Shown here: positions 9,324 through 56,600 of the stretch, in pieces
Layout of the letters: each line of letters opens with the position of its first letter
How positions within the stretch are numbered: position 1 is the stretch's first letter
IMG/VR virus record: IMGVR_UViG_3300037493_005727
Location: 133,091-190,250 of that record
Reading direction: 5' to 3' (one strand)
DNA from: a virus
DNA length: 57,160 bases
The notes under the pieces: model-generated
Database searches by the model: none
Told to the model about the DNA's origin: nothing
The model's input: only the letters and a program-made list of their open reading frames with translations
Position numbers and translations under genes: made by a program

Positions 9324-10952
9324 ATGGCTCTCACAATCTATCGATACCGAGCAACGGGCCCTGGGATCGGCGATCTCTCAAAAGAAGTTCCGAGTGCTGT
9401 CACTTTTTCAGCGGCCGGGCATCTGTACGTCGACATTCAGGTCGACGACACAGTTCTTCAGGATCTCAGCGATGCCATGGCCGCAAGAGGGTGGACCTTC
9501 GATTCCACCGCTCCGGCGACAACCCCGGCGGCTCAAGCCGCGTCTCTCGGCTCCGACGCCATCAACATCCTGTCGGGCGGCACTCTCGTCGCCAAGCAGC
9601 CAAGTCTGAACTTCGTCTCAGGCGCCACGGTCGTCAACAACGGCGGCGCTGGGCGAGTTGACGTCACCATTCCGGCCGGGCTGGCTCTTACCGCCAACGC
9701 CCCTCAAGGCGTTTCACTTACGGCGGCGGCGGTGGGTACGGGTACCGCTGCGGCCAAAGATGACCACGTTCACCTCTTGGCTACCGCGGCACCGAGCAAC
9801 ATCGGCACCGCCAACGCCGCAGGAACCGCGACTTCTTCAGTTCGCTCTGACCACGTTCACGCTCTTCCGTTTGCCACCGTGCAGACGGTGCTCGCAGGCG
9901 CAACCAGCGCCATCGCAGTCAATGCCCAGAAGATCACAGGCCTCGCGGACCCGACGGCTGCGCAGGACGCTGCGACAAAGGCTTACGTAGATGCCACGAG
10001 CCAGGGTCTCGACGTCAAGGCGTCGGTTCGGGCAATCTCGACCACCAACATCACGCTGAGCGCTCCGCAAACGATTGACGGCGTCTCGGTCATCGCGGGC
10101 GATCGCGTTCTCGTTGCCGGTCAGAGCACCGCCTCGGCCAACGGCATCTACGTCGTCGCAGCGGGTGCGTGGACCCGAGCTACGGACGCCGACACTTCGC
10201 CGAAGGTCACGGCCGGGATGTTTACCTTCGTCACAGAAGGAACAGCGAACGCCGACTCTGGTTGGGTGCTGACGACCAACGACGCCATCGTTCTGGGCAC
10301 CACCGCTCTCGCCTTCACCCAGTTCTCTGGGGCTGGGCAGGTTGTAGCGGGCGCTGGTCTCACGAAGACGGGCAACACGCTCGACGTCATCGCCAACGCG
10401 GACGCTTCCATCGTTGTCAACGCCAACGACATTCAGGTTGGCGTACTCGCGACCGATGGGCAGCACGGCAACCGGGGCGGTGGAGCTCTCCACGCCAACG
10501 CCACAACCTCTGTCGCGGGGTTCCAGTCTGGCGCCGACAAGACGAAGCTCGACGGCATCACCGCTCTGGCCTCGACGGACTGCCTCCTCTGGGGAAACTC
10601 CTCCATCGGCACCAGCACGACGGCCCGCTTTCTCACGCCCGGTTACACGGACAACAGCGCACAGACCTCCGCCGTTCAGTTCCGCGTCCCTCGCGCAGGC
10701 ACCATCCGGAACCTGCGTGTCCGCTCCAACACTGCAGGCACTGGCGCTTCGAACCTCACGTTCACGCTGCGAAAGAACGGAACGAACCAGACCCTGACCT
10801 GCACCTACTCGAACACGGCCCAGGACGGCTCCGACTTGGTCAACAGCTTCACAGTGGCCGCTGGCGATCTCATCGATCTCACAGTCACCAAATCCGCTTC
10901 TCTCTCGAACAGCCCCTCTGCTGTCGTAGCTTCTGTCGAATACAGCGCCTAA
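9324..10952 (+). CDS. fibre-like structural protein (542 aa), Ala/Thr/Gly-rich; its N-terminal domain is paralogous to 10971..11720 and its C-terminal domain to 8583..9311
   Basis: AGGAG RBS. N-terminal MALTIYRYR...ARGWTFDSTAPAT matches MAATVYRYR...ERGWVFDCTAPVT, and the C-terminal domain matches the upstream gene. Confidence 0.65.
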   Translation: MALTIYRYRATGPGIGDLSKEVPSAVTFSAAGHLYVDIQVDDTVLQDLSDAMAARGWTFDSTAPATTPAAQAASLGSDAINILSGGTLVAKQPSLNFVSGATVVNNGGAGRVDVTIPAGLALTANAPQGVSLTAAAVGTGTAAAKDDHVHLLATAAPSNIGTANAAGTATSSVRSDHVHALPFATVQTVLAGATSAIAVNAQKITGLADPTAAQDAATKAYVDATSQGLDVKASVRAISTTNITLSAPQTIDGVSVIAGDRVLVAGQSTASANGIYVVAAGAWTRATDADTSPKVTAGMFTFVTEGTANADSGWVLTTNDAIVLGTTALAFTQFSGAGQVVAGAGLTKTGNTLDVIANADASIVVNANDIQVGVLATDGQHGNRGGGALHANATTSVAGFQSGADKTKLDGITALASTDCLLWGNSSIGTSTTARFLTPGYTDNSAQTSAVQFRVPRAGTIRNLRVRSNTAGTGASNLTFTLRKNGTNQTLTCTYSNTAQDGSDLVNSFTVAAGDLIDLTVTKSASLSNSPSAVVASVEYSA

Positions 10953-22686: not shown

Positions 22687-22708
22687 CCGTCACCAGGGTT
22701 CACTTTCA

Positions 22709-22746
22709 GGCGCCTCGGGGAACACTCCCCGGGGCGCTTTTCTTTT
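22709..22746 (+). terminator. rho-independent terminator
   Basis: GGCGCCTCGGGG-AACACT-CCCCGGGGCGC followed by TTTTCTTTT. Confidence 0.6.
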
Positions 22747-22749
22747 GGT

Positions 22750-24303
22750 ATGGTGCCTGCCATGGCAAACTCAAAGCTGCCGCAGAGCAAGAACCATGGA
22801 AGCGCTGGAGCTTCTTCTCGCGGACGGTTTCTTGACAAGAAGTCGTCGAATAAGGGGTGGGAGATCTGCTCGGTCACCAATTACTCCCCGCAAGCACAGA
22901 CCTACTCGGTTGCCGCGGGCAGCGGCGCGCTTCTCTCCGACGTCCCCCGGATGGTGAACGACCCAGGAGAAATCAGCGTTCTTCCCCGCGGCACGGAGGT
23001 CGTCATCCACTACGAGCTCAACGGACGCCCGGTCATCCTCGGCGTGCTCAAGAGCGCGGTCTCCAACGCAGTCGAAGTGAACCCCGCCAGAATCAGTGAA
23101 GTCCGCGGCGTGGGCGGTGAAGACGGCGTGTACTCGCAGGAAGGGGATACGAGCACCAGCAGCAGCCGCCCTCCGAATGACCCCGTTGACATCATCTCGG
23201 ACGACTGGCTGCGCAAGGGCAAACACAACAACTTCGTGGGCGTCTTGTCCGGGGGCACCAACATCTTGTCTTCGAGCCCCATGGCGCAGATCCGTACGCA
23301 CGGGGTCAACGACATGGTGGAGGTGTTTGCCAACGTGTACCGGCACATCTCCGCCCTCGGGAACCTGGACATCAAGAACGACGGCGGCAAGACCTCACTG
23401 ACCTGGCGCGCAGGCGCTGACCAGCTCACCGAGAACGGCGCCAACGCGGAGAACTGGACGCTGCGTCTCGACGCAGGGGCGGAGGGAGACCTCTTCCGCT
23501 TGAGTGTCACCACCCCGCACAACAACACGCTGTGCGAGGTGCACATGAGCGCCGATGGTCGCCTGTCCCTCACAGGGGTCGCCGGGGTCGACATCTCCTC
23601 GGGGACCAACGGCACTGCTCGAGAAGACGTCGCGGCGAACAAGGAAGTCTCAGTCCTTGGGGACATGGCCACGCAGGTCAAAGGGGAAGTCACGGAGACC
23701 TTCGACGCAGGAAAGACCACCCTGGTTGCAACCAACGATGAGGTGTCCGCGGGCAACGACCTAAAAGAAACCGTCGGCCATGATCGGATGACGCACATTG
23801 GAAATCGGCTAGTCACCACCGTTGAGGGTGGTGGGCCGGTTCCTCCTCCAGACACAGGCAACCTGGCGATTCTCTGGGACGCCGTCAACGGGGGCATCGA
23901 GTCCGTGACCGGCAATCCCAAGAGCGGAGGGATCCCCACTCCGAAGCAGTCACAGAACTTCGTGAACTACGCGGGGGACTTCAACTTCGCCGTTCCGTCG
24001 ACCGCGAAGTTCAACCTTCTCTCTACGGGAAATGATTCGGTGATCCTCGGCGCAGACGGCGCGGCGACTTCCACAGACCAAGGCCATACGTTCTCAGTCA
24101 CCATGCCGCCGCATCACGTCTGCATGTGGGAGGAGTTCGAGAAGTTCGCCAACGCGGTCATTGAGTGGTGCGACTCCCACGTGCACCTGACCGCGGTGGG
24201 CCCCTCGGGGCCAGCCCAAGCGGGGGCTACAGGGCCTCTGACGGCGAAGGCCAAGGACAAGATCCCTCCTGTCAAAAGCACCCGCGTACTCGTCGGAGCC
24301 TAA
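22750..24303 (+). CDS. large structural protein (517 aa), baseplate or tail-spike-like beta-rich protein
   Basis: Long ORF directly after a terminator and a T-rich GGTATGG element. Confidence 0.6.
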   Translation: MVPAMANSKLPQSKNHGSAGASSRGRFLDKKSSNKGWEICSVTNYSPQAQTYSVAAGSGALLSDVPRMVNDPGEISVLPRGTEVVIHYELNGRPVILGVLKSAVSNAVEVNPARISEVRGVGGEDGVYSQEGDTSTSSSRPPNDPVDIISDDWLRKGKHNNFVGVLSGGTNILSSSPMAQIRTHGVNDMVEVFANVYRHISALGNLDIKNDGGKTSLTWRAGADQLTENGANAENWTLRLDAGAEGDLFRLSVTTPHNNTLCEVHMSADGRLSLTGVAGVDISSGTNGTAREDVAANKEVSVLGDMATQVKGEVTETFDAGKTTLVATNDEVSAGNDLKETVGHDRMTHIGNRLVTTVEGGGPVPPPDTGNLAILWDAVNGGIESVTGNPKSGGIPTPKQSQNFVNYAGDFNFAVPSTAKFNLLSTGNDSVILGADGAATSTDQGHTFSVTMPPHHVCMWEEFEKFANAVIEWCDSHVHLTAVGPSGPAQAGATGPLTAKAKDKIPPVKSTRVLVGA

Positions 24304-24307
24304 AAAA

Positions 24308-24331
24308 CAGCGCCCCCGTGAGGAGGCGCTG
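24308..24331. terminator. bidirectional GC hairpin terminator between convergent genes
   Basis: CAGCGCC-10 nt-GGCGCTG. It is preceded by AAAAAA on the top strand, which gives a T-run for the leftward gene 24334..24777. Confidence 0.55.
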
Positions 24332-24333
24332 CC

Positions 24334-24777
24334 TTACTTCAGGTTCACTTGGCCCACGCCGCCAACCAATATCCCAGCGCTGAAAATTGCGAGGGGCGGT
24401 TTGTCTCCAACGAACAGGCGGAACTCGGGCTCGGGTAACTTCTTGGTGACTACGTCGTAGATGGAGGGGTGGATAAACGCTACCCCTGAATCGGCGATCA
24501 ACTTGATGAGCGCCACTCCGTCTTCGGGGTTCGTCCAGCGGATCCCTTGCGCGTATTCTCCTTCGCCAGGGGGTACGCCGGATCTCCAGGTGACGGCGCC
24601 ATCAATCGCTTCTTCCCATTGTTTGATCCCTGGGTCGAATAGAGCGACAGGCAGTTCCAAGGCGAACCACTTGGAGTAGAGCAGGACAAGGTGGTTTTTG
24701 TCCCCAGCGAGTCTAGCTACCGTGGGCTTCTTTTTAGTTAACCCCCGGAGCAGTTCTACGTCGCTTGATGTGATCAT
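24334..24777 (-). CDS. hypothetical protein (147 aa), moron island gene 3
   Basis: Reverse-oriented ORF inside the structural block, in a lower-GC segment. Confidence 0.5.
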   Translation of the reverse strand: MITSSDVELLRGLTKKKPTVARLAGDKNHLVLLYSKWFALELPVALFDPGIKQWEEAIDGAVTWRSGVPPGEGEYAQGIRWTNPEDGVALIKLIADSGVAFIHPSIYDVVTKKLPEPEFRLFVGDKPPLAIFSAGILVGGVGQVNLK

Positions 24778-25069
24778 CGAAACTCAATACGTTTTTCGTA
24801 AGATGCTCTTCGCAGTTCTCTTCGTTGCATTTCTCACCTCGGACACTTACTGCGTAGTGGTGGTAGTTGACAGCCGTGTCATCGGCGACGTGCTCGATGA
24901 AGTGCTTTTGTTTTTGATGCAAGAGGTACATGGAATTGAGATCCAGGACCCCTGGGGCCACCGTGGAGATGGCCTCGTCCAACTTGTCCGGGAAGGCGGT
25001 GTACGTCAACCCCTCGGGCATCTCTTCTTCTGCTACCGACACAAGCAACAGCAGCCATTTCTTCGCCAT
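24734..25069 (-). CDS. hypothetical protein with a hydrophobic N-terminus (111 aa), moron island gene 2
   Basis: Its N-terminus is MAKKWLLLLVSVA. It lies in the AT-richer segment and overlaps the downstream gene by 44 nt. Confidence 0.45.
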   Translation of the reverse strand: MAKKWLLLLVSVAEEEMPEGLTYTAFPDKLDEAISTVAPGVLDLNSMYLLHQKQKHFIEHVADDTAVNYHHYAVSVRGEKCNEENCEEHLTKNVLSFDDHIKRRRTAPGVN

Positions 25070-25121
25070 CAGTTCTCCATGTTGTGAGAGGAGCCTGTGA
25101 TGGTGATCGATACTTCTACGA

Positions 25122-25472
25122 CTAGGCGATACGCAAGTGCGGGAAGTATCCTTTCGCGTTCGTATCCGCGTTGTTCGTTCCCCCCGTGATGGTGGTGATG
25201 ACCTTCGTCATCTCGTGTAGATCTACTTCTCCTACCGCAAGACCGCAGCGGTCGTATTTGAACTTTTCAGCGACGTACGCTACCGCGAGAAATCCCTTCT
25301 CTCGGAAGTAGTGCGCCGTGCCGAGCAGCGGAAACGAGACCAACCACGATCCGCCGATGCTTTGAAACTGGTCGGGCATCTTCACGCCGACCGCTTCGTA
25401 TCTTGTACCGTTGCCCGGTTGATGGACGACTTTGACAAAGTCCGGCCCAACGTTGTGGACTTCAGTGCTCAT
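25122..25472 (-). CDS. hypothetical protein (116 aa), moron island gene 1
   Basis: The ATG at 25472 lies 20 nt downstream of a copy of the leftward promoter-like motif. Confidence 0.5.
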   Translation of the reverse strand: MSTEVHNVGPDFVKVVHQPGNGTRYEAVGVKMPDQFQSIGGSWLVSFPLLGTAHYFREKGFLAVAYVAEKFKYDRCGLAVGEVDLHEMTKVITTITGGTNNADTNAKGYFPHLRIA

Positions 25473-25489
25473 AGGTGTCTCCGGCTAAG

Positions 25490-25524
25490 GTGGTGGTGGT
25501 TCAAACGGCTTATACCCTACGCGG
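25490..25524 (-). promoter_or_regulatory. copy 8 of the repeated promoter-like intergenic motif (GGGTATAAG...TTTGAACC)
   Basis: In gene sense it reads TAGGGTATAAGCCGTTTGAACC, matching the core of the motifs at 48.6 kb and 45.7 kb. Confidence 0.4.
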
Positions 25525-25566
25525 TAGGAGTTTTCCGAGGCACCCTTCACGTGGTACCTTGAGCGC

Positions 25567-25857
25567 ATGCCCTGGGGAAACGACTTTCCATTCGCAGAAC
25601 TGGCGCAGAAGCTCATCGAGACTCACCTACGCGCTGAACGCGTTCGTCTTGCACAGCGTCTCCAGGCGTTGGAAGCTCGCGCGGCGACCCAGGGGCTCAA
25701 AACAAAAGACCTCCGAGATCTTCGAAAATCGCTACAACAATCTACCCTTCTGGCTCCGGATCGGGTAGACAAAGAACTCGTTTTACCGCGTAAAGCCGCA
25801 GGCGTGTGGCGTCGGCGGTATCTTTCAACGAAATCCCGGCCCGGGAGTGTCTTCTAA
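25567..25857 (+). CDS. hypothetical protein (96 aa)
   Basis: The ORF ends in a TAATG overlap with the next gene. Confidence 0.4.
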   Translation: MPWGNDFPFAELAQKLIETHLRAERVRLAQRLQALEARAATQGLKTKDLRDLRKSLQQSTLLAPDRVDKELVLPRKAAGVWRRRYLSTKSRPGSVF

Positions 25858-27614
25858 TGGCGTGGCAAACCTTCGAGCTCCCAAAGATCCCCAGCGGACT
25901 CGGGACGGCCGTTGATGGTCTGAAGACTATCGCGTCTACGTCTTCAGAAGCGTTGAAGCTGGTCAAGAGTCTCGTTGAGGCTCTTGGCGCTACGGCGACT
26001 ACGAGCTTGTCCGCGTCTCAAATAGCGATCAACACGGCGGTGGCGACAATTCAGGCCGCGGTGAAGGCGTTGACCGAAGACACCGGGGTGTACGTGCTGC
26101 TCGTCCCTCCTCGGAGCAAGGTCATCATTCCCGAAGCCGTCAAAGCGGTGCTTGCTCCCTCTCTGTTCATCGCTCCGACTCCTGAGGGGTTGAAGACGCA
26201 AGCTATGTTCGCGGGGCAGCCGACCACTGTACAAGAGAATGCCATCCTCCGAGGCCTGTTCTCCGCCACCGGCGGAAACGCGGGATTCGTAAGGCAGGTC
26301 ACCGAATCTTTCGATGATCTTGGTGACGACAATCGGCCGCAGCTCGGGAAGACTGACGCCGTCGCAGGAATCTACATCGTAGCTGGCGCGGAGAACATCG
26401 CTTCCATCATTCCGTTCACCAACGGGATGTCGTCTCTCCTTGCTCCCGGCAAGCCCACGGCGCTCGACGCCCCAGCTCTTCCGACGCCGCAGAATCTCCG
26501 GGCGAAGGCGGTCAACGGACCCGCGGTCAGCTTGAAATGGGACTACCAGCCGCCCACGGTCGAGATTCCGGCCTTGGGGACCTTTGCGTCGGTGACGGAG
26601 GTGGCGATCATCAAGTCCACTTCCGTGAAGACGCTGTCCGCGACTACCAGCCAGGGGTTGTTTGGGACGACCCAGCTCCGCGTCGGAACGAAGACCGGGG
26701 ATGGAAAAACTGAAGTAGTGGCGATCATACCGCATACCGGGGTCGACTTCAAAAGCGTCGCCATCGACTCTACTGAGCACAAACCTGGAGTGGGCTATTA
26801 CTACGCCGCGAGCTACCACGTGAAGCTGGGGACCTCGAAGGAGCTGGCTTCAGGCGGCGGCTCTGATCTTGGGTTCCTCCGCCTCTCGAACGTGGCGAAG
26901 GTGTACTACCCGAACACCAATTACGGTACTCCACGAAGCATCACAGGTGTTCCCCCGGACTGGTACAGAACTCCGAGAACAATCGACCTATTCCCAGCGG
27001 TCGGTGATCTCTTGAGTCAAGTGGTAAGCCTCACCGCGCAGCTTGGAAACACGACCAAAGGGTACAGTGACCTCCTTAAGGCGAACGTCAAAGTCGTCGA
27101 GCAGCAGATTCTGGGGTACACGGATCTCGCAGCTCGGCTGTCCGCCGCGGCAGCGTCTATCGCGTCTTTCTCCACTATCGATCTCGGTACCGTCAGCTCC
27201 AGAGCGTTCGCAGGCACTGGAGGGGTGGACTTCGTCAAGAAGGACCTCGTAAAGGCGTTCGGTGACACGTCGGACCCCAATCGCCCTCCGTTTGACAACA
27301 ACGAATTCGTTACCGGCGTCGTCATCCTGGCAACCACGCCAAACGCGGTGGCCTTGCTGGAGCAGCTCTTGGGAAGCATCAGTTCGGGCGCCAGCGCCGT
27401 AGCGCTTGCGCTAGAAAAGATCGATGTTGTTCTCACAAACATCGAAGCCGCGGTGTTCAACGACGACATGTCCCCGCACGCGGCGGTCCCAGTTCCAAGC
27501 ACGAGCGCCACCTCTTCGGCAGCGCTGACGTCGTTGGTTGGCGAACAAGCGGGCTACTGCTATCACTCGTACGAACCCAATGTGGAGTTCGACGACAACC
27601 TGAATCCGATCTAA
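25857..27614 (+). CDS. large structural protein (585 aa) with an FN3-like segment
   Basis: Track ORF 25806..27614 with its start moved to the ATG coupled to the upstream stop. It has an Ala/Thr/Ser-rich helical N-terminus and a beta-sandwich-like middle. Confidence 0.6.
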   Translation: MAWQTFELPKIPSGLGTAVDGLKTIASTSSEALKLVKSLVEALGATATTSLSASQIAINTAVATIQAAVKALTEDTGVYVLLVPPRSKVIIPEAVKAVLAPSLFIAPTPEGLKTQAMFAGQPTTVQENAILRGLFSATGGNAGFVRQVTESFDDLGDDNRPQLGKTDAVAGIYIVAGAENIASIIPFTNGMSSLLAPGKPTALDAPALPTPQNLRAKAVNGPAVSLKWDYQPPTVEIPALGTFASVTEVAIIKSTSVKTLSATTSQGLFGTTQLRVGTKTGDGKTEVVAIIPHTGVDFKSVAIDSTEHKPGVGYYYAASYHVKLGTSKELASGGGSDLGFLRLSNVAKVYYPNTNYGTPRSITGVPPDWYRTPRTIDLFPAVGDLLSQVVSLTAQLGNTTKGYSDLLKANVKVVEQQILGYTDLAARLSAAAASIASFSTIDLGTVSSRAFAGTGGVDFVKKDLVKAFGDTSDPNRPPFDNNEFVTGVVILATTPNAVALLEQLLGSISSGASAVALALEKIDVVLTNIEAAVFNDDMSPHAAVPVPSTSATSSAALTSLVGEQAGYCYHSYEPNVEFDDNLNPI

Positions 27615-27623
27615 GGAGGCACA

Positions 27624-27884
27624 ATGCGAAAAATGTTCGACTACAGCTGTGAGGCTTGCGGGCACCAGTTCGAGGCCTTGGTGGAAGGGGAGAACGAAGT
27701 CGAGTGCCCAGAGTGTGAAGAGAGTCCTGCGACGAGGCGGCTCTCTGGGGGGCACCAGTTCGTGGTCATCAAGGCAACCACGCTGACCTCGAAGAAGTAC
27801 AAGGCGGGCTACCAGCACAGCCACACGAACCGGCCTAAGGAGAAAATCTCCGTACAGGTTCCAGCTGCCCCGAAGACCCCGTAG
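27624..27884 (+). CDS. FmdB-family-like zinc-ribbon protein (86 aa)
   Basis: AAGGAGG RBS. It contains YSCEACGHQFE...ECPECE, as in the CxxCGHxFE...CPxC regulatory zinc-ribbon family. Confidence 0.5.
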   Translation: MRKMFDYSCEACGHQFEALVEGENEVECPECEESPATRRLSGGHQFVVIKATTLTSKKYKAGYQHSHTNRPKEKISVQVPAAPKTP

Positions 27885-29599: not shown

Positions 29600-29986
29600 T
29601 CAGGCCTCAGGATCGAACCCGAGGCTCTTGGCGTACTTCGTCACGCCGATACCGACGAGGGCGCCAACCGTGACGTCCTTCTCCTTCGCGGTGGCCTTCA
29701 GGAACTTCAGGACGCCCTTGGCGACCTGCCCCTGCGCCTTGGTGCCCGCGACGCGCTTCGGCTTCTTCTCCGCCTTCGGAGCCTTCGCCTTGGCGACGCG
29801 CTTCGCCTTCTTCTCCGCCTTCGGAGCCTTCGCCTTGTCCGCGCGCTTGGTGTACTTCCGCTTGGCCTTCGGCTCCGTGGAGGCGACGGCCTCTGCGGGA
29901 ACAGCGGTCAGCGGTACCGGCGCTGCGGCGGCGGCGGGAGGAGGAGGAACAGGGGCGGCGGGGACTACGGTTGCTGTGGTTTCCAT
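29600..29986 (-). CDS. histone H1-like Lys/Ala-rich DNA-binding protein (128 aa)
   Basis: Repeats AKAPKAEKKAKRVAKAKAPKAEKKPKRVAG correspond to a tandem DNA repeat of about 45 bp, like H1 or actinobacterial HU-tail AKKA repeats. Confidence 0.55.
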   Translation of the reverse strand: METTATVVPAAPVPPPPAAAAAPVPLTAVPAEAVASTEPKAKRKYTKRADKAKAPKAEKKAKRVAKAKAPKAEKKPKRVAGTKAQGQVAKGVLKFLKATAKEKDVTVGALVGIGVTKYAKSLGFDPEA

Positions 29987-36829: not shown

Positions 36830-36907
36830 GACACCTCAAGTTTAGGCCAGAGGCTAAAAATGAGCTGGGCATACTCGCCGTTGCTCTTCTCTTCTTCTTA
36901 TACCGCA

Positions 36908-37685: not shown

Positions 37686-37724
37686 GGTGCTCACCTCTTA
37701 TACCCATAAAGTGATCAAAAAAAG
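37686..37724 (-). promoter_or_regulatory. degenerate copy 9 of the promoter-like motif (CTTTTTTTGATCAC...GGGTATAAGAGG)
   Basis: It shares the GGGTATNAG core and the upstream GATC/T-run with copies 4 to 6. Confidence 0.3.
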
Positions 37725-37757
37725 AAAGCCACCGCCTGTACAAGCGCGGTGGCTTTT
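37725..37757. terminator. bidirectional terminator: 11-bp stem AAAGCCACCGC with loop CTGTACAAGC, flanked by A- and T-runs
   Basis: Direct reading of the sequence. The loop is nearly identical to that of the terminator at 38977-39010. Confidence 0.55.
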
Positions 37758-37775
37758 TCTTTCTTCGACCCTTCT

Positions 37776-38087: not shown

Positions 38088-38128
38088 TCTTTGGCTCAAG
38101 GACTCATACCCGAATTCTAGCCCTTTTA
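38088..38128 (-). promoter_or_regulatory. copy 1 of the promoter-like motif (...GGGTATGAGTCCTTGAGCCAAAGAT)
   Basis: About 30 nt upstream of the ATG at 38057. It is preceded (in gene sense) by a GC hairpin plus T-run. Confidence 0.4.
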
Positions 38129-38976: not shown

Positions 38977-39010
38977 AAAAAACAACCCCCGCCTGTACGA
39001 GCGCGGGGGG
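38977..39010 (-). terminator. rho-independent terminator: stem AACCCCCGC with loop CTGTACGAGC and a T-run on the bottom strand
   Basis: Hairpin and complementary A-run immediately downstream of gene 39027..39248. Confidence 0.55.
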
Positions 39011-39026
39011 TTCTTTGAGATCTCCC

Positions 39027-41794: not shown

Positions 41795-42694
41795 TTAGGG
41801 TTTCTGGGACTGCGAGAGGGACGTCTGATCAGGGGACAAGAGCGCCTGCACGCAGGCGTTCGCTTCTACGACCTTGAGATACTCCTCTGCCAACGCAGGA
41901 TTGTTCTGCGTTCGATCTGGGTGGTAAAGCCTGGCGAGACGACGAAACTGCGTCTTGATGTTCGCGCGAACCTTCGGCGTGAACTCCCCGTTCTTCGGAG
42001 GGTCCACGTTGAGGACACGAAGAGCCGCATAGAGCCTCTTCGTTCTCGAAGCGTCCGAAAGCTTCTCCGGATCTGCCACTCGAGCGCGTGCGATGATGCT
42101 GCGCCACGTTTCAGTCAACGCCCGAAGATCCGCGCGACCAACGGCGCGGATGTTATAGGCGGCGAATTCTGGGACGCCGACCAGCATCTGGTCGAACAAG
42201 CGTTCCACGGCTGCGAAGAACTCAGTGGACTGCCCTCTGGCAGACAAAGGTTCTTCTGGCTCCTTTTCCGGTGTCCTTGCCCTCGTTTTGCTCGTAGGAG
42301 CATTTTCGGAGGGGCGCTTCTTGTCCAGCGTTCCCGCCAGATACGCCTGGATAGTCGCTTCTACTTTCTCGGGCGTTGGTTGCTGTTTGTCGTCCCGCGA
42401 CCGAGCGATGATGATTCCGCTCGACCGGAGCGTAACCTTCTTAGCTTCGAGCGCCGCCCAGATAGGCTCCGCCGCAGCGCCCACCCGGTGCAGGATCGCC
42501 CGATCCATGATGTGTCGGGGTCCTGCGTTCTCAGAGCCGGGGGGCAACTGAGCGGTGATCCAGTAGCCGCAGTAGTTTTTGCGGGCTCCTGGAGTGTCTG
42601 GAGTGAACGCGCGCATCTCGTGTTCAACCTGAGCGCGCTCCTTTTCACTGGTACTGGCAACCCACGCCAGAACCAGCTCTGCGATCGATCTCAT
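41795..42694 (-). CDS. J-domain (DnaJ-like) protein (299 aa)
   Basis: Its C-terminus IKTQFRRLARLYHPDRTQNNPALAEEYLKVVEANA matches the J-domain helix II/III with the HPD motif. Confidence 0.55.
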   Translation of the reverse strand: MRSIAELVLAWVASTSEKERAQVEHEMRAFTPDTPGARKNYCGYWITAQLPPGSENAGPRHIMDRAILHRVGAAAEPIWAALEAKKVTLRSSGIIIARSRDDKQQPTPEKVEATIQAYLAGTLDKKRPSENAPTSKTRARTPEKEPEEPLSARGQSTEFFAAVERLFDQMLVGVPEFAAYNIRAVGRADLRALTETWRSIIARARVADPEKLSDASRTKRLYAALRVLNVDPPKNGEFTPKVRANIKTQFRRLARLYHPDRTQNNPALAEEYLKVVEANACVQALLSPDQTSLSQSQKP

Positions 42695-43636: not shown

Positions 43637-43670
43637 AAAGGCTGCATCTCTGATACCAAAAAAAGGGCTG
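43637..43670 (-). promoter_or_regulatory. copy 2 of the promoter-like motif (TTTTTTTGGTATCAGAGATGCAGCC)
   Basis: It has the GGTATCAG core after a T-run. It is preceded in gene sense by the hairpin GGCCCCCC-GATGATCT-GGGGGGCC (43687-43710). Confidence 0.35.
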
Positions 43671-45028: not shown

Positions 45029-45064
45029 GCTTTGGCTCAAGTCCTGATACCAAAAAACAGCCCC
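45029..45064 (-). promoter_or_regulatory. copy 3 of the promoter-like motif (TTTTTTGGTATCAGGACTTGAGCCAAAGC)
   Basis: It is followed to the right by the nested hairpin GCCCC-AA-CCTAC-GAAG-GTAGG-A-GGGGGC with flanking T/A runs. Confidence 0.4.
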
Positions 45065-45102: not shown

Positions 45103-45627
45103 TTACGAGGGCAACTGGTACCGGGACGTTTCAGGGTCCCAGAGCAGCAGCTCGTGATCCCACCAGGGCATCATCCCCTTGGTGCCCTCGTCGAGGGCGG
45201 CGGCCATGCGGTCCACCCTGACCTGGGGGACCCCGTGGGTGTTGCGCGGACCGGCGATGGCCGGGTCGATGCGGAGGGTCATGATGACCACCTCCGCCCC
45301 GAACGCCTGCCCGACCGCCACGTAGGGGGCGATCTCAGCCACCGACGTGGACGTGTTGTCCACCACGATGACCGGCTCGGGGACGGGGTTACGGACCCCG
45401 GAGATCTTGGCCAGCTCGCGCTGGGCATACCCGTCCTGCAGGTGCTCGATGACCGAGAGCAGGCACGCCCCGTGAGCCGCCGGGAGCTTGGCGGGGTTGA
45501 AGACGTACTTCTCCCCTTCCATCATCCCGTCGTCCGCCGACGCGATGAGGTCAGCCTTGGGGAGCTCCTTCCGGGCGAAGGTGCTCTTCCCGCTGCCGGG
45601 GATGCCTCGAAGAATGATAAGGCGCAT
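45103..45627 (-). CDS. polynucleotide-kinase-like P-loop kinase (T4 Pnk kinase-domain-like, 174 aa)
   Basis: MRLIILRGIPGSGKSTFARKE plus a downstream VVDNTSTS segment. It parallels the T4 Pnk kinase domain (IILTIGCPGSGKSTWARE...ISDTNL). No phosphatase domain is present. Confidence 0.5.
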   Translation of the reverse strand: MRLIILRGIPGSGKSTFARKELPKADLIASADDGMMEGEKYVFNPAKLPAAHGACLLSVIEHLQDGYAQRELAKISGVRNPVPEPVIVVDNTSTSVAEIAPYVAVGQAFGAEVVIMTLRIDPAIAGPRNTHGVPQVRVDRMAAALDEGTKGMMPWWDHELLLWDPETSRYQLPS

Positions 45628-45711
45628 GGGTGGTCCTTTCTCGGCTTTCACCGAAGTGAGACGCAGTGCCAATAACTAGCCACCTCCGGCTCCCATGCAG
45701 GAGCTTGCGTC

Positions 45712-45746
45712 GGGTTCAAGTACTAATACCCTAAAAATGATCAGTT
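45712..45746 (-). promoter_or_regulatory. copy 4 of the promoter-like motif (AACTGATCATTTTTAGGGTATTAGTACTTGAACCC)
   Basis: Near-identical to copies 5 and 6. Confidence 0.4.
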
Positions 45747-46151: not shown

Positions 46152-46997
46152 ATGTTCTACCGCCTCGGACAGCATCATGCTCTCGCCGCATTAGGCCTCG
46201 AAAAGCTCGCGGCGATTCTACGCCCAGGGATTGGGGGTCCCGCGGCGGAGATTCAACGGCACGTCGACACCGGTAACTTCGCTGAAGCTTCCAGGCTGGC
46301 TCGGCAACCAGGGGCTTTCGTGGATCAGCAGCACCTCAGCCCTTTTGACCTCGGACACCACATCCGGCATCTCGGGGCGGGGGTCGAAGGCAGCGCGGAA
46401 CTGATGGTCCACCCCCAGCACGGCGTCAACGCCACGAAGATCTACGACCCTCGGGGGATCACTAAGCGTCGTGGGGTTGAACTCAAAGGGGAGGCGTTCA
46501 ACCGTATCCAGAACTTCGAACCCAGGTCTACCAGAGATCGTGAGCTACAGCAGCATCTCGTACGCCTCCTTGGGCAGACAACGCCTCCCAGGCCGACAGA
46601 CGCCGGGATCCCGACGGTTCTCCCAGCCCACCACTTCGAATTCGTGCCTGGGCATCACGGGGATCATGTTCTACCCGCTGACCAGGAAGCCCGTTTCACG
46701 ACGCTGCAGGGGCAAATGCGCGACTTCATCCCCAGGGCTACCGGCGGTATGACGGTCCACGACACCAACAAGCGGGACAACTGGATCATCGGTCCTGATG
46801 GCCGCCCCACTCTGGTCGATTTCTCCCTTACCAGCGCTCCGGGCGCTTCTTGGGGGGACATCCAGCAGAAGGCGCTCCCCGGGGCGGACCCTAAAACAAT
46901 CTTCGCCCGCCACAGGGAAGGGTTTGATTCCGCCGAACCGTCCGACGACCCACGCTACGCCGAACCCCCGCCGGTGAGGGCGGGGGCCCGACGTTAG
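46152..46997 (+). CDS. protein-kinase-like protein (atypical or eukaryotic-like kinase fold candidate, 281 aa), rightward gene inside the leftward block
   Basis: It is the only long ORF over this 850-bp stretch and its codon third positions are GC-biased like the rest of the genome. VHDTNKRDNWII resembles the HRDLKPEN catalytic loop, and TLVDFS resembles DFG. Confidence 0.45.
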   Translation: MFYRLGQHHALAALGLEKLAAILRPGIGGPAAEIQRHVDTGNFAEASRLARQPGAFVDQQHLSPFDLGHHIRHLGAGVEGSAELMVHPQHGVNATKIYDPRGITKRRGVELKGEAFNRIQNFEPRSTRDRELQQHLVRLLGQTTPPRPTDAGIPTVLPAHHFEFVPGHHGDHVLPADQEARFTTLQGQMRDFIPRATGGMTVHDTNKRDNWIIGPDGRPTLVDFSLTSAPGASWGDIQQKALPGADPKTIFARHREGFDSAEPSDDPRYAEPPPVRAGARR

Positions 46998-47398
46998 CTT
47001 TCCAGCGTTGAAACCCAGCTGCGCAGCTTTTCTGGGGTCAGCTCGTTGAAGGGGACACGGGTGACATCGAACCCCGCGGCCGCCAGGATCGTCACCATCT
47101 TCATGGCTCCGGGGGTGTTCATGGAGTGCACGAGAACGGGGACTCCTTGATCGAGCTTCTGCGCAACGGCCTTTGCCACGACGCCCCCGTTGGTGAAGGC
47201 GCCGTCAGCCGTGACCCCCTGCTTGTACAGGTCGTAGTCCAACAGGACCCCGTGGTAGGTGTCCGCCTCGTCCTTCTTGAGGATGGCCAACGCAGCGCCG
47301 CCTGAACGCGCCCAGACCACCCGCACCTCTTTGGGGAGGTGCGCCGTGAAGAAGGCATGCCGGTCAGAGTCATCCTCGACCAGCAGGAGGCGGATCAT
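46994..47398 (-). CDS. stand-alone response-regulator receiver (REC/CheY-like) domain protein (134 aa)
   Basis: MIRLLLVEDD...VLLDYDLYK...VLVHSMNTPG...K pattern. It has a GGAGAGGAGGAAGC RBS. Confidence 0.5.
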   Translation of the reverse strand: MIRLLLVEDDSDRHAFFTAHLPKEVRVVWARSGGAALAILKKDEADTYHGVLLDYDLYKQGVTADGAFTNGGVVAKAVAQKLDQGVPVLVHSMNTPGAMKMVTILAAAGFDVTRVPFNELTPEKLRSWVSTLES

Positions 47399-47727
47399 GC
47401 TTCCTCCTCTCCAAAGTCGATCTCGAGCATGATCTTCTGTTCGATCCGCTTTTGGGACCACCCGGCCTTGGCGAGGTGGCAGACAGCCAACTCCAGCGCC
47501 ATCTGGAACTTCCAGCGCCCCAGCGAGGTGTCTTCCGCCTGCCCAAGCTTATTGGCGTAGCGGAGGATGGCGACCCCCGATACCAGGTCCTGCTCCTGGC
47601 GGTCCGGCGGTCCAGCGAGGGCCCTGGCTCGCCCAAAGGCCACCTTGTAGGCCTCCGGTCCAACCACGAACAGCTCCAGCCACTGGCCGTAGAGAAACCC
47701 GGCCAACCAACCTAGCGCGTAGCGCAT
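47395..47727 (-). CDS. hypothetical protein (110 aa)
   Basis: The ATG lies 30 nt downstream of motif copy 5. Its stop overlaps the REC start (ATGA). Confidence 0.5.
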   Translation of the reverse strand: MRYALGWLAGFLYGQWLELFVVGPEAYKVAFGRARALAGPPDRQEQDLVSGVAILRYANKLGQAEDTSLGRWKFQMALELAVCHLAKAGWSQKRIEQKIMLEIDFGEEEA

Positions 47728-47756: not shown

Positions 47757-47796
47757 TCTTTGGCTCAAGGTCTAATACCCCTAAAAAAGATCACTT
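47757..47796 (-). promoter_or_regulatory. copy 5 of the promoter-like motif (AAGTGATCTTTTTTAGGGGTATTAGACCTTGAGCCAAAGA)
   Basis: It is preceded in gene sense by the hairpin GGGGGCCCCCC-AAAA-GGGGGTCCCC (47810-47836). Confidence 0.45.
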
Positions 47797-48585: not shown

Positions 48586-48623
48586 GGGGTTCAAAGTCTA
48601 ATACCCTAAAAAAGATCACTTTT
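48586..48623 (-). promoter_or_regulatory. copy 6 of the promoter-like motif (AAGTGATCTTTTTTAGGGTATTAGACTTTGAACCCC)
   Basis: Near-identical to copy 5. It is preceded in gene sense by the hairpin around 48628-48655. Confidence 0.45.
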
Positions 48624-49644: not shown

Positions 49645-49670
49645 CTCCTGATACCCTAATAGAGTCCTGG
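49645..49670 (-). promoter_or_regulatory. copy 7 (partial) of the promoter-like motif (CTATTAGGGTATCAGGAG) in the divergent region between the leftward and rightward blocks
   Basis: It has the GGTATCAG core but lacks the TTGAGCC half. The ATG lies only 8 nt downstream. Confidence 0.3.
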
Positions 49671-53604: not shown

Positions 53605-56600
53605 ATGTCCGTGAAAGATATCACCGGCCTTCTGACCATTCTCCCGGAGAAGGATCAGCCTAATCAGGCCATCAAGGAAGACCTACAGGCCGGGAACATC
53701 GCTTTCCGTAGCCGCACGCTGGCGCGTACCCTCTTGTTCTGGAACAATAACAACTCAGGCTCGGATCACGGTCTCGCGCTGTATCCGTTTAAGCAGGGCG
53801 GACTGTTGGATGACCTCGACATCACGGTGGGGCACGCCGTGTACGACAAGGCCACCATCACACCGTACCCTACCGGGGGTAACGGCACCGCTCCTACTGC
53901 CATGTCCACGTACGACTACGCCAAATTCCGTGCGACGGGATCTGTTCCAAATATCAATTCCGCGCAGATTCCTCGGGTACACGCCGGAGTCGCCGCGTAC
54001 GATCCAACTACAAGCAACGCACTGAGCTTCTGGGGAGGCGATGCCATCGTTTCTGCGTCAGATCTTCCGGCTGACTATACGCAAGTCGGCATCGTGTACG
54101 CCCACCCGACGTACCTTGCTTCGTCCAGCGGCCTGGCCGCTGGCAATACACAGCTGGTGATTCAAGTCGGCGTACCCTTCGTCTCCTTCACGGGCGCTGG
54201 GTGGTGGGATCAGGAATACGTAACTCCAGGGCGATTTCAGGTACTCCGTATCGGCGTCGGTGCGAATGCGGGGTCCTACTACGTCCAGCACGTCGACTAC
54301 ACGAACAACAGGCTGTACCTCCGCAACTTGGACGGAACGCCATTCGTCGGGCAGTCCGCTGCTACTATCGCTGGAACTGATTTGTACCTCGGCCCGGGGC
54401 GCACCGCGTACTTCAATGAAGTGAGCATCATCCCTCTCTCGACGGGAGTCCTGCTAACGAGTGGACGCTACACCCCAGGGTTTTACCCTGGAACAACACA
54501 GCCCCTGCGGTCTAGCTTCATCGCGCGCATCAAGTTCGAAAAAACCGGCTCGACGGAAGTCGCAGCGGCGGCTGAGCAGCAGGGGTCCTACACCATCGGG
54601 ATGCGCCCGTGGACCCACGGCGCATACGACTACGATACCGGTTACGACTTCTCGTGCTACCAGGCCACCGCTAACGAAGGAGCAACGGGCCACTACCCGG
54701 GGCACACCTTCCCGTACAACGCGACGACGGCTGCGGCTGCGAACGCTATGATCCTCGACGAGGCCAACCAGCGCTGCTGGATCGGCGTCACAAACAACGC
54801 CAACGTTTCGACCATCAATCACTGGCGGTGGCGTACGCTCGAAAGCCCCCGCGAAGTAGCCAGCGGCGTTAGCGTGGCGGGTCACGCGTCCTTCCTCACA
54901 CCAGCTCTGGTGCTTGGAAGCGGAGATCGTATTCGCGGCGGAGCACTCGGTTCAAATCAGTGGGTTTACTTCGCGGTATCGCACCCAACGCTTGGCAACG
55001 GCGGACTCATCGTCATCAAGCCAAACTTGACGACGCTCCAGTACACTGAGACCACAGGGATCCCTGACTCCAACGTCGCTGGTGTGGTAGCCGACAAGTC
55101 GCGTACCCGCGTCGGCACGGCCGCAGATGCTTCGACTAACGGCGCTGACCAAATCACCTCCGCGTCGGGCGCATTCACCAGCGCGGATATTGGTCGCGCC
55201 ATCAAGCTCACGGGGCTCGGAGCCGACAACGGAACCTACAAGATCGCCACTATTGTTGGCGGCACGCAGGTCACTGTTACGACGATGGCTGGTGCCGCCG
55301 TCACATTCACCACGCAGACTGGCGGAACTTTCGAGATTAGCGACCGCCTGTACCTCTTCTTCCACGACGCAGTCGCTGGTGCAGGGAAGATCAACTACAT
55401 GGAGGCGCTGGTTCCCGGTACCTTCCTGACGCGCACGGTGTCAATGACGAACGGCGCGACTTGCACCATCCAGAACAACAATGGAGAGAGCCAGAAGATC
55501 TCCATCGACCCTGCCAATGGGAATGTTTACTGGCTGTCTAGCGACACGCAACAGCAGATCAACAAGTACGACGTCGCCGCCAACGCGCACTCTTTCATTC
55601 CAATCACGAACTCCTCGCTGCTCGCGCCCGCTGGCGGCGTGCAGAACAACGTGGCGAGTCCCGCGAACAACCCTGGCACGCCGACCGCCTTCACGGCCAT
55701 CCAGGTGAACTCGAAGTTCGACGAAATCTGGGTCGGGTCGGACGCTGGCGAATTCAAGATCGTCAAGAGCACCTTCTCGACGTCTACCATCAAACGGTAC
55801 TACGGCGATGAGGACACGACAGTAGCCGCAGGGAACTGCAACTACTTCACTGGGACTCCTCTGACGACGGGAACCGGAAACGGTACGACTGGCCTCACGG
55901 CTTCCGCCGGAAACGTCACCCTGAATGCAACCGGTACTCCATTTGTTGCGAGCGACGTAGGCAAGTACGTCATGATCACCGGAGCGTCTACCGCCGCGAA
56001 CAACGGCGTGTTCGTTCCTGCGACCGCCATCCCGTTCAAGATCATCACATTCAACAGCTCATCATCTATTGTGTATGCCAACGCCTCAGGCGTGACGCAG
56101 GCCAACTACGCGGGCACCTTCTACATCGTGTCGTCTTACGCGCCGCGTTCTTCGGGTACTTTTTCTGGTTCAGCCAACAGCAACTACGTTCGTAACTTCT
56201 TGGAGCATCCAGACGGAAGAATTTCCGCGCAGCTGTGGCCTAATACCGTCATAGCTCATGACTATGCGAGCTACTCCCGCGAAGCTGACACCTTTGTGTA
56301 CCGTATCTTTCAGCACGCTACCCAGTCATCAACCGCAACCGGCCGCCTCCGTGTGATCGATTCTATCGGGTGGTTCCTAGATCATTGTTACGGGGCTTCG
56401 AACGCGGGGTCCCGGATGATGCTCGGTGCGTACGAAGTTAACTACCAGTGGACAGGCTCCGCGTGGACTCCCAGGGAGCTGGCGCTCGCTGGCACTCCGA
56501 ACAAGTCCTTCGCCGACACCACCAACCCGCTCGCAGCGGCGAAGCCCATCCACTCCGCAGCCGAAGCTTTGATGTACGGCGTGAAGATTCAGTTCAATCG

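Follow-up and report, generated by a model that had tools for sequence, protein, structure and literature searches.

Large virulent phages such as T4 intersperse early and middle transcription units, on the opposite strand, among their late genes, and classic lambdoid morons are usually co-oriented with the genes that flank them. The term moron denotes an autonomous module that was acquired independently and brings its own promoter and terminator (PMC10914365, summarising Juhala et al. 2000). Here, we analyzed 57,160 nucleotides (nt) of viral DNA (positions 133,091 to 190,250 of IMG/VR record IMGVR_UViG_3300037493_005727; hereafter the window), in which a cassette of three small minus-strand genes, transcribed in the order C, B and A, runs head-on into a rightward block containing virion genes. 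The original prediction, made from the sequence of the window, had called this cassette a moron. With moderate confidence, we favor another reading, namely that it is a conserved, autonomous, non-virion leftward operon (C-B-A) embedded in the virion-gene block of a large uncultivated phage. The cassette resembles morons in being a small unit with a promoter-like element and an intrinsic terminator between virion genes, with a guanine-plus-cytosine (GC) content below that of its neighbors. Unlike morons, A and B are not variably present but fill the same slot in every one of 12 genomes, the GC offset follows the GC of the genome, and no prophage context was found; unlike lambdoid morons, the cassette is oriented opposite to its flanks. 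By analogy, the T4-type layout appears similar in its strand-segregated gene classes and in its small genes with their own promoters and terminators between virion genes, and the promoter element of the cassette would likewise be common to a non-structural block. However, the element, GGTATnAG, matches none of the early, middle or late consensus sequences of T4. While arrangements of this kind are known, the protein families themselves are new and had not been described.

The three leftward open reading frames (ORFs) of 116, 111 and 147 amino acids (aa) were found where they had been predicted, enclosed by plus-strand genes that end at 24303 and resume at 25567. The leftward promoter-like motif described ahead of them also withstood scrutiny, as it is enriched, strand-biased and recurrent upstream of other leftward genes. 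Its extended form, GGTATNAG-N3-4-TTGARCC, has six matches in the window against none expected, all six on the minus strand and none on the plus strand, and these copies precede leftward start codons by 25–45 nt. For the 8-mer core GGTATNAG, the window has 12 copies against 1.95 expected (11 minus, 1 plus). In all 12 genomes, the octamer GGTATAAG lies 35–45 nt upstream of the first cassette gene amid diverged intergenic sequence, and in the loci of the relatives, 13 copies of the 8-mer share the strand of the cassette and a single copy does not. The TTGAACC half was rejected as a conserved signal because it diverges across relatives, whereas GGTATAAG alone is kept. TTGAAC was also rejected as a -35 box, no -10 element being present at the right spacing behind it.

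At the opposite end of the cassette, a GC-rich hairpin with a predicted energy of -28.5 kcal/mol (z = -3.9 against shuffles) is followed by a minus-strand T6 tract, which overlaps the TAA stop codon of the 517-aa gene. The hairpin and a T6-7 tract are kept, with compensatory stem changes, in 10 of the 10 genomes examined. The original prediction had described a bidirectional GC hairpin terminator, and the strong hairpin with T6 on the minus strand bears out the first half of that description. However, the plus-strand tail, CCTTACTT, has no T-run and the terminator scan flags the minus strand only; therefore, the terminator belongs to the leftward unit and cannot be shown to act in both directions. 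The cross-genome footprint of the box and the hairpin provides the best evidence that both signals may work, and the claim of an autonomously expressed unit is upheld in silico by the box in every genome and the terminator in every genome examined.

Relatives were collected through the flanking hub gene, a route unbiased for the cassette (L001, L002 and L004 from IMG/VR and L012-L016 from Joint Genome Institute (JGI) metagenomes; n = 8), and three further lineages, L006, L024 and L026, were fetched through the cassette proteins. All eight hub-fetched relatives have the reversed cassette at the same junction. Comparison of presence and absence at this junction in the 12 genomes with DNA revealed A and B in every one and C in 11, in identical order and orientation, the sole absence of C, in L002, being a deletion. 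Synteny extends to relatives in which A is only 40% and the hub 52% identical (hub range 52–89%). B and A share 44 nt in the window, L002, L004, L006, L024 and L026, and 47 nt in L001. Ratios of nonsynonymous to synonymous substitution rates (dN/dS, NG86), which are rough values because dS is near saturation, were 0.09–0.19 for A, 0.10–0.34 for B and 0.09–0.25 for C, and 0.05–0.20 and 0.03–0.13 for the hub and the 585-aa gene used for comparison. These values indicate clear purifying selection on A, B and C. Megablast of the region and tblastn of the hub protein against GenBank phages (50,697 records) gave no match. Homologs of the window proteins, which stand on a 190,250-bp metagenome contig, were found on contigs of up to 168–190 kb from several independent metagenomes. 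Contigs of this length suggest a large-genome clade, apparently a lineage of large phages that has not been described.

A horizontally acquired, non-essential cassette for host interaction, anti-defense or superinfection exclusion is, on this evidence, improbable. Such a moron would fit a promoter-like box and terminator of its own, proteins in no known family and, as shown below, the lowest GC in the window; it would not fit the constant junction and overlap of A and B, which persist down to 40% identity, nor the purifying selection on the genes. Furthermore, scans of 185,579 species' representative genomes with the hub and C detected no relatives and no prophage or integrated copies, whereas morons are mainly a prophage feature (PMC10914365). 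PADLOC, in addition, returned no match for the cassette proteins. As a description of A and B, inserted moron cargo is therefore not supported, given their fixed slot, purifying selection and a GC content that tracks the genome, and it fits C only in part.

The base composition bears on the same question. The segment at 24304-25530 has a GC content of 55.0% and is the lowest 1227-nt stretch of the 57-kb window (0.8th percentile), in which stretches of this length average 60.2% with a standard deviation of 2.0. That the segment is AT-richer, as originally noted, thus stands, but the 48–52% GC given for it is true only of about 300 nt in B, where the lowest 300 nt reach 49.3%. The GC of small genes, taken over both strands, has a median of 0.58 and a minimum of 0.516, and the cassette genes lie at the low end of that range; the neighboring 96-aa plus-strand gene is likewise low in GC (56.4%, with 0.53 at the third codon position, GC3). 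The deficit of B arises mainly at codon position 2 (GC2 = 0.31) and therefore reflects amino-acid composition. The GC3 of A, B and C, 0.67–0.70, is at or slightly under the lower quartile of the phage's genes. The deficit of the cassette is seen again in every relative genome. In L001, whose genome is 9 points lower in GC, the locus has 0.515, with A at 0.459, B at 0.432–0.436 and C at 0.449–0.450. Given that the deficit shifts along with the genome, it is probably not a fresh foreign signature and would not indicate recent import; it is real, yet kept proportionally in L001 and partly driven by amino-acid composition, which counts somewhat against a moron. Of the two features said at the outset to speak against a moron, uniform conservation was essentially found, whereas GC indistinguishable from that of the flanks was not.

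Gene C is the one component to which moron-like behavior can be attributed, having been deleted in L002, exchanged together with its promoter, and evolving faster than the flanks in some pairs, within a wide family. In L002, the promoter and leader stay and are followed by ATGAGTTACGCCCAGTAG, which corresponds to the first two and the last three codons of C. Judged from this sequence, the absence is a loss with a 5-codon scar and not the ancestral state, which again speaks against a moron; the promoter still stands ahead of B and A after the deletion. Gene C and its promoter intergenic region form a patch whose history differs from that of the flanks. In sliding windows, the patch shares 77–83% nt identity with L004, against mostly 50–70% in the flanks, and 61–74% with L012, against 73–87%. 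Correspondingly, the C protein is 86% identical to that of L004 (hub 65%) and 67% identical to that of L012 (hub 87%). The locus thus offers a fine-scale case of recombination in which one gene and its promoter were replaced within an otherwise vertically inherited operon.

C-like proteins are widespread. Close homologs of C form 52 clusters, and an exhaustive profile search at E <= 1e-3 raised this to 282 representative clusters, whose members are almost all of 90–170 aa and have the signature PGNGTRY...Y..EK...D, with P19, G20 and Y25 invariant. Two long matches of the deep search, P0198 and P0209, proved to be DUF285 and RCC1 repeat proteins and were judged spurious. A comparison of 79 wider family members with PHROGs and Pfam gave no match, and none was found in PDB; C represents one widespread unannotated family. 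Two distant C genes stand among small co-directional genes in non-virion surroundings, in L007 adjoining a DNA ligase with a LAGLIDADG endonuclease and in L022 close to genes for a GIY-YIG endonuclease, a phage zinc-finger protein and a helix-turn-helix protein. Hidden Markov models of A and B had no match on the contigs of these distant relatives and matched in the present clade only; therefore, C constitutes an independent, more mobile unit. A and C were also considered as paralogs, a candidate rejected at an hhalign probability of 0.9%. C with its promoter region appears accessory-like, exchangeable and dispensable, the sole part of the cassette to behave in this way, while A and B appear to be clade-specific, vertically inherited and effectively core genes.

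Table 1. Positions in the window of the cassette, its candidate signals, the promoter-like cores elsewhere and the flanking genes
Feature	Position	Strand	Description
Promoter-like element	25498-25519	-	Core GGTATAAG at 25509-25516, then TTGAACC
Gene C	25122-25472	-	116 aa; first gene of operon
Gene B	24734-25069	-	111 aa; GGAGA Shine-Dalgarno upstream
Gene A	24334-24777	-	147 aa; last gene before terminator
B/A overlap	24734-24777	-	44 nt, end of B over start of A; A in +1 frame relative to B
Intrinsic terminator (putative)	24302-24331	-	Hairpin 24308-24331; minus-strand T6 at 24302-24307
Intergenic region, divergent	25473-25566	none	94 nt between C (leftward) and 96-aa gene (rightward); blocks conserved across relatives
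Recombinant patch	25100-25570	none	Gene C and promoter intergenic region; history differs from flanks
Other GGTATNAG cores, leftward non-structural block	36897-36904, 37697-37704, 38103-38110, 43650-43657, 45044-45051, 45723-45730, 47772-47779, 48598-48605, 49648-49655	-	
One more GGTATNAG core	56240-56247	-	
517-aa gene	22750-24303	+	Putative tail hub or spike; Gp5_trimer_C, weak match, E = 7e-4
96-aa protein gene	25567-25857	+	Basic; right flank
585-aa gene	25857-27614	+	ATG at 25857

The box links the cassette with genes outside the virion block. Several core copies in the leftward block at 30-50 kb come directly after a hairpin and T-run, and the block therefore seems to be built of terminator-promoter units like the cassette. 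Its genes are non-structural and include an AAA_33 kinase-like gene (45103-45672, minus strand; E = 7e-9) directly downstream of the core at 45723-45730, a cREC_REC "cyclic-phosphate processing receiver" domain protein (46994-47461, minus strand; E = 3e-7) and a DnaJ-domain protein (41795-42694). The proximity of the AAA_33 and cREC_REC genes hints at an RNA-repair or end-healing module. The GGTATnAG box may define the regulon of a sigma factor or polymerase on the minus strand of 30000-50900. Since the box is common to the cassette and to these genes, the cassette is probably expressed with the leftward non-structural class and not with the surrounding virion genes. The same block also contains two similar palindromic terminator-like elements, at 37720-37758 (AAAAGAAAGCCACCGCCTGTACAAGCGCGGTGGCTTTTT) and, as a 79% identical copy, at 38977-39015; they lie 1.26 kb apart with a leftward unit between them.

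A promoter element shared with non-structural leftward genes, and not with virion genes, argues against the view that A and B, and possibly C, are non-virion chaperones or catalysts that assemble the neighboring hub or tail proteins and are kept beside their clients on the other strand. This view, which we consider unlikely but deserving of some weight, accounts well for the invariant position of A and B between the 517-aa gene and the 96- and 585-aa genes, even where hub identity falls to 52%, and it agrees with an overlapping pair of genes and with small, acidic products resembling many chaperones. The nearest described counterparts are the lambda G/GT tail chaperones, which likewise comprise two small overlapping ORFs near a large protein, here one with faint tape-measure similarity. 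However, all surrounding virion genes run in the other direction from B and A, translation of A would begin at a conserved ATG of its own, and the frames differ by a +1 offset rather than a -1 slippery site. Neither A nor B shows sequence or fold similarity to G/GT or to other known tail chaperones, and the C family is found elsewhere in ligase and endonuclease neighborhoods.

The absence of a recognized family for the three proteins, already suspected from the sequence, was confirmed: A, B and C had no match in Pfam, PHROG, PADLOC or NCBIfam, and profile searches against PDB sequences returned matches at chance level only. The median isoelectric points of the A, B and C families are 5.2, 5.6 and 6.5, that is, neutral to acidic, and no transmembrane segments were detected. 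The signal-peptide-like N-terminus originally attributed to one of them (B) did not hold up. Across 46 homologs, the median length of its strict hydrophobic stretch is 5 residues, and an acidic patch with an invariant E14 comes next; a maximum Kyte-Doolittle value of 0.94 in a 19-aa window also speaks against a signal peptide.

Protein A is acidic and predicted to be cytoplasmic, and all 49 of its 49 homologs measure 103–155 aa. Its start is conserved, with M1 and I2 nearly invariant and T3 invariant across homologs. The model suggests a single DNA-clamp-like alpha/beta domain with a topology like that of DNA sliding clamps (DnaN, PCNA, T4 gp45 and herpesvirus UL44). Unlike these clamps, A would have one domain and not the two or three per chain that make up a six-domain ring. 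Fold matches in BFVD include phage DnaN clamps, although the best viral neighbors are uncharacterized single-domain proteins; a literature search on a clamp-like fold in bacteriophage found no match. It is conceivable that A is a minimal DNA-tracking clamp, a ring of single-domain subunits, which with B would serve replication processivity or the coupling of replication to late transcription. In T4, gp45 couples replication to late transcription with gp33 and gp55. The DnaN matches, the acidity of A, which clamps share, and the position of the cassette among late genes are consistent with such a role. Nevertheless, we give it a slight probability only, given the single domain, the uncharacterized nature of the closest structural neighbors, the lack of a clamp match in Pfam and of DnaN, PCNA or gp45 in NCBIfam, PHROG and PDB sequences, and no evidence in the window of a clamp loader or sigma-like partner.

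In B, Y69-H70-H71 and C81-x4-C86 are invariant and H89 nearly so among 46 sequences, and this His/Cys cluster may form a zinc site. The B model had no fold match, and B matched no known zinc-finger family. A larger hypothesis, which we regard as highly speculative and assign a slim chance, would join these features: A, as a ring-forming clamp fold, and B, as a zinc-binding protein, would form a new two-protein module, restricted to this clade, that tracks or binds DNA and couples replication with late virion-gene expression, like T4 gp45/gp33, or serves as a minimal processivity factor, and C would belong to an unannotated family of small early phage proteins (the 282 representative clusters) swapped between lineages, possibly under host-defense pressure. 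A type II toxin-antitoxin or abortive-exclusion pair formed by B and A, to which we attach hardly any weight, would explain two small overlapping genes with their own promoter and terminator and an acidic upstream partner that may bind zinc. Against this are the lack of any toxin or antitoxin family match in Pfam, PADLOC and NCBIfam, a predicted clamp-like fold of A that is unlike known toxins, and vertical inheritance in one fixed slot in place of a patchy, mobile distribution. Bacterial genomes also lacked the pair, as judged by proxy searches covering C and the hub only.

Under the favored reading of a conserved non-virion operon, transcription would probably start a few bases downstream of the -10-like octamer GGTATAAG, proceed through C, B and A, and end at the hairpin and U-tract that abut the stop codon of the hub gene. 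GGAG-type ribosome-binding sites precede C and B, and A is probably translationally coupled to B, because it starts 44 nt inside the end of B. A and B would then probably act together as a complex. For the products of C, B and A, the most likely site of action is the infected cell and not the virion, since they are small, neutral to acidic and devoid of a signal peptide or membrane segment. Several points weigh against this reading. Promoter function and timing are deduced from a motif that is conserved but ends in a G, at variance with the sigma-70 -10 consensus; the model of B is only moderate (predicted local distance difference test (pLDDT) score of 77.8), and its zinc binding is deduced from conserved residues. 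Furthermore, a distant lineage represented by gene calls only, P0137, seems to be without A, such that the core status may not be universal, and a function in building the tail or baseplate could instead explain why A and B have stayed so strictly linked to the tail genes across deep divergence.

These findings call for caution in reading gene cargo from sequence. A reversed, lower-GC cassette with its own promoter and terminator in a virion module resembles a textbook moron, yet here it is ancient and syntenic; therefore, in large virulent-type phages, such features alone are no sign of recent cargo. Additionally, a strand-biased promoter-like element, GGTATnAG, is now described for an uncultivated clade with contigs of 168–190 kb, as are two clade-specific protein families, one with a predicted single clamp-like domain (A) and one with a His/Cys motif (B).

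The flanking genes had been called structural. Clear virion genes occur upstream in the rightward block to which these flanks belong, where PHROG matches for head decoration and virion structure reach E = 4e-48 at 9324-10952 and where 372-2369 encodes a head-protease-like protein, but the immediate flanks are backed by weak matches: that of the 517-aa gene to Gp5_trimer_C and that of a "602-aa" ORF on the right to a tape-measure PHROG, the latter faint at E = 6e-3. Most large virion proteins had no match in Pfam. The "602-aa" ORF probably starts at 25857 and encodes 585 aa, because the stop codon of the 96-aa gene and the ATG share 1 nt (TGATG, 25855-25859); this start agrees with the gene call in L005 and with the N-termini in the relatives, whose homologs begin at MAWKTFELPKIP.

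Several further observations concern the junction and the surrounding block. An Rfam scan of 23500-26500 gave no match. A conserved box, CGTGGTAC (CTGTGCTAC in some relatives), lies at 25535-25560 on the plus strand, 8–20 nt before the 96-aa gene begins, and was found at equivalent positions in L001, L002, L004, L006 and L012-L016. Standing at the expected Shine-Dalgarno position, it may serve as an unusual signal for translation or as one for rightward late genes. In contigs of the P0137 type (ENA ERZ1426835, ERZ1426824 and ERZ1426827), the slot holds a reversed 43-aa gene, a 115-aa C homolog and a 105-aa gene, with neither A nor the 96-aa gene among the gene calls; the slot may predate the genes that now occupy it. 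Directly 3' of the 585-aa gene, an 86-aa Zn_ribbon_8 protein (27624-27884, plus strand) is encoded in all relatives at 67–80% identity, which places it among the best conserved of the block. On the other side, a rightward hairpin and T-run at 22700-22745 (plus strand) directly follow a 251-aa gene that is 72–88% identical in relatives and has a GC3 of 0.87. The conservation, the GC3 and the hairpin with T-run behind the gene suggest that its product is a major virion protein, highly expressed, and that the gene has an attenuating terminator of its own. Finally, a 45-nt unit is present as a tandem duplicate with 98% identity at 29748-29837, in a very GC-rich segment with ORFs on both strands.

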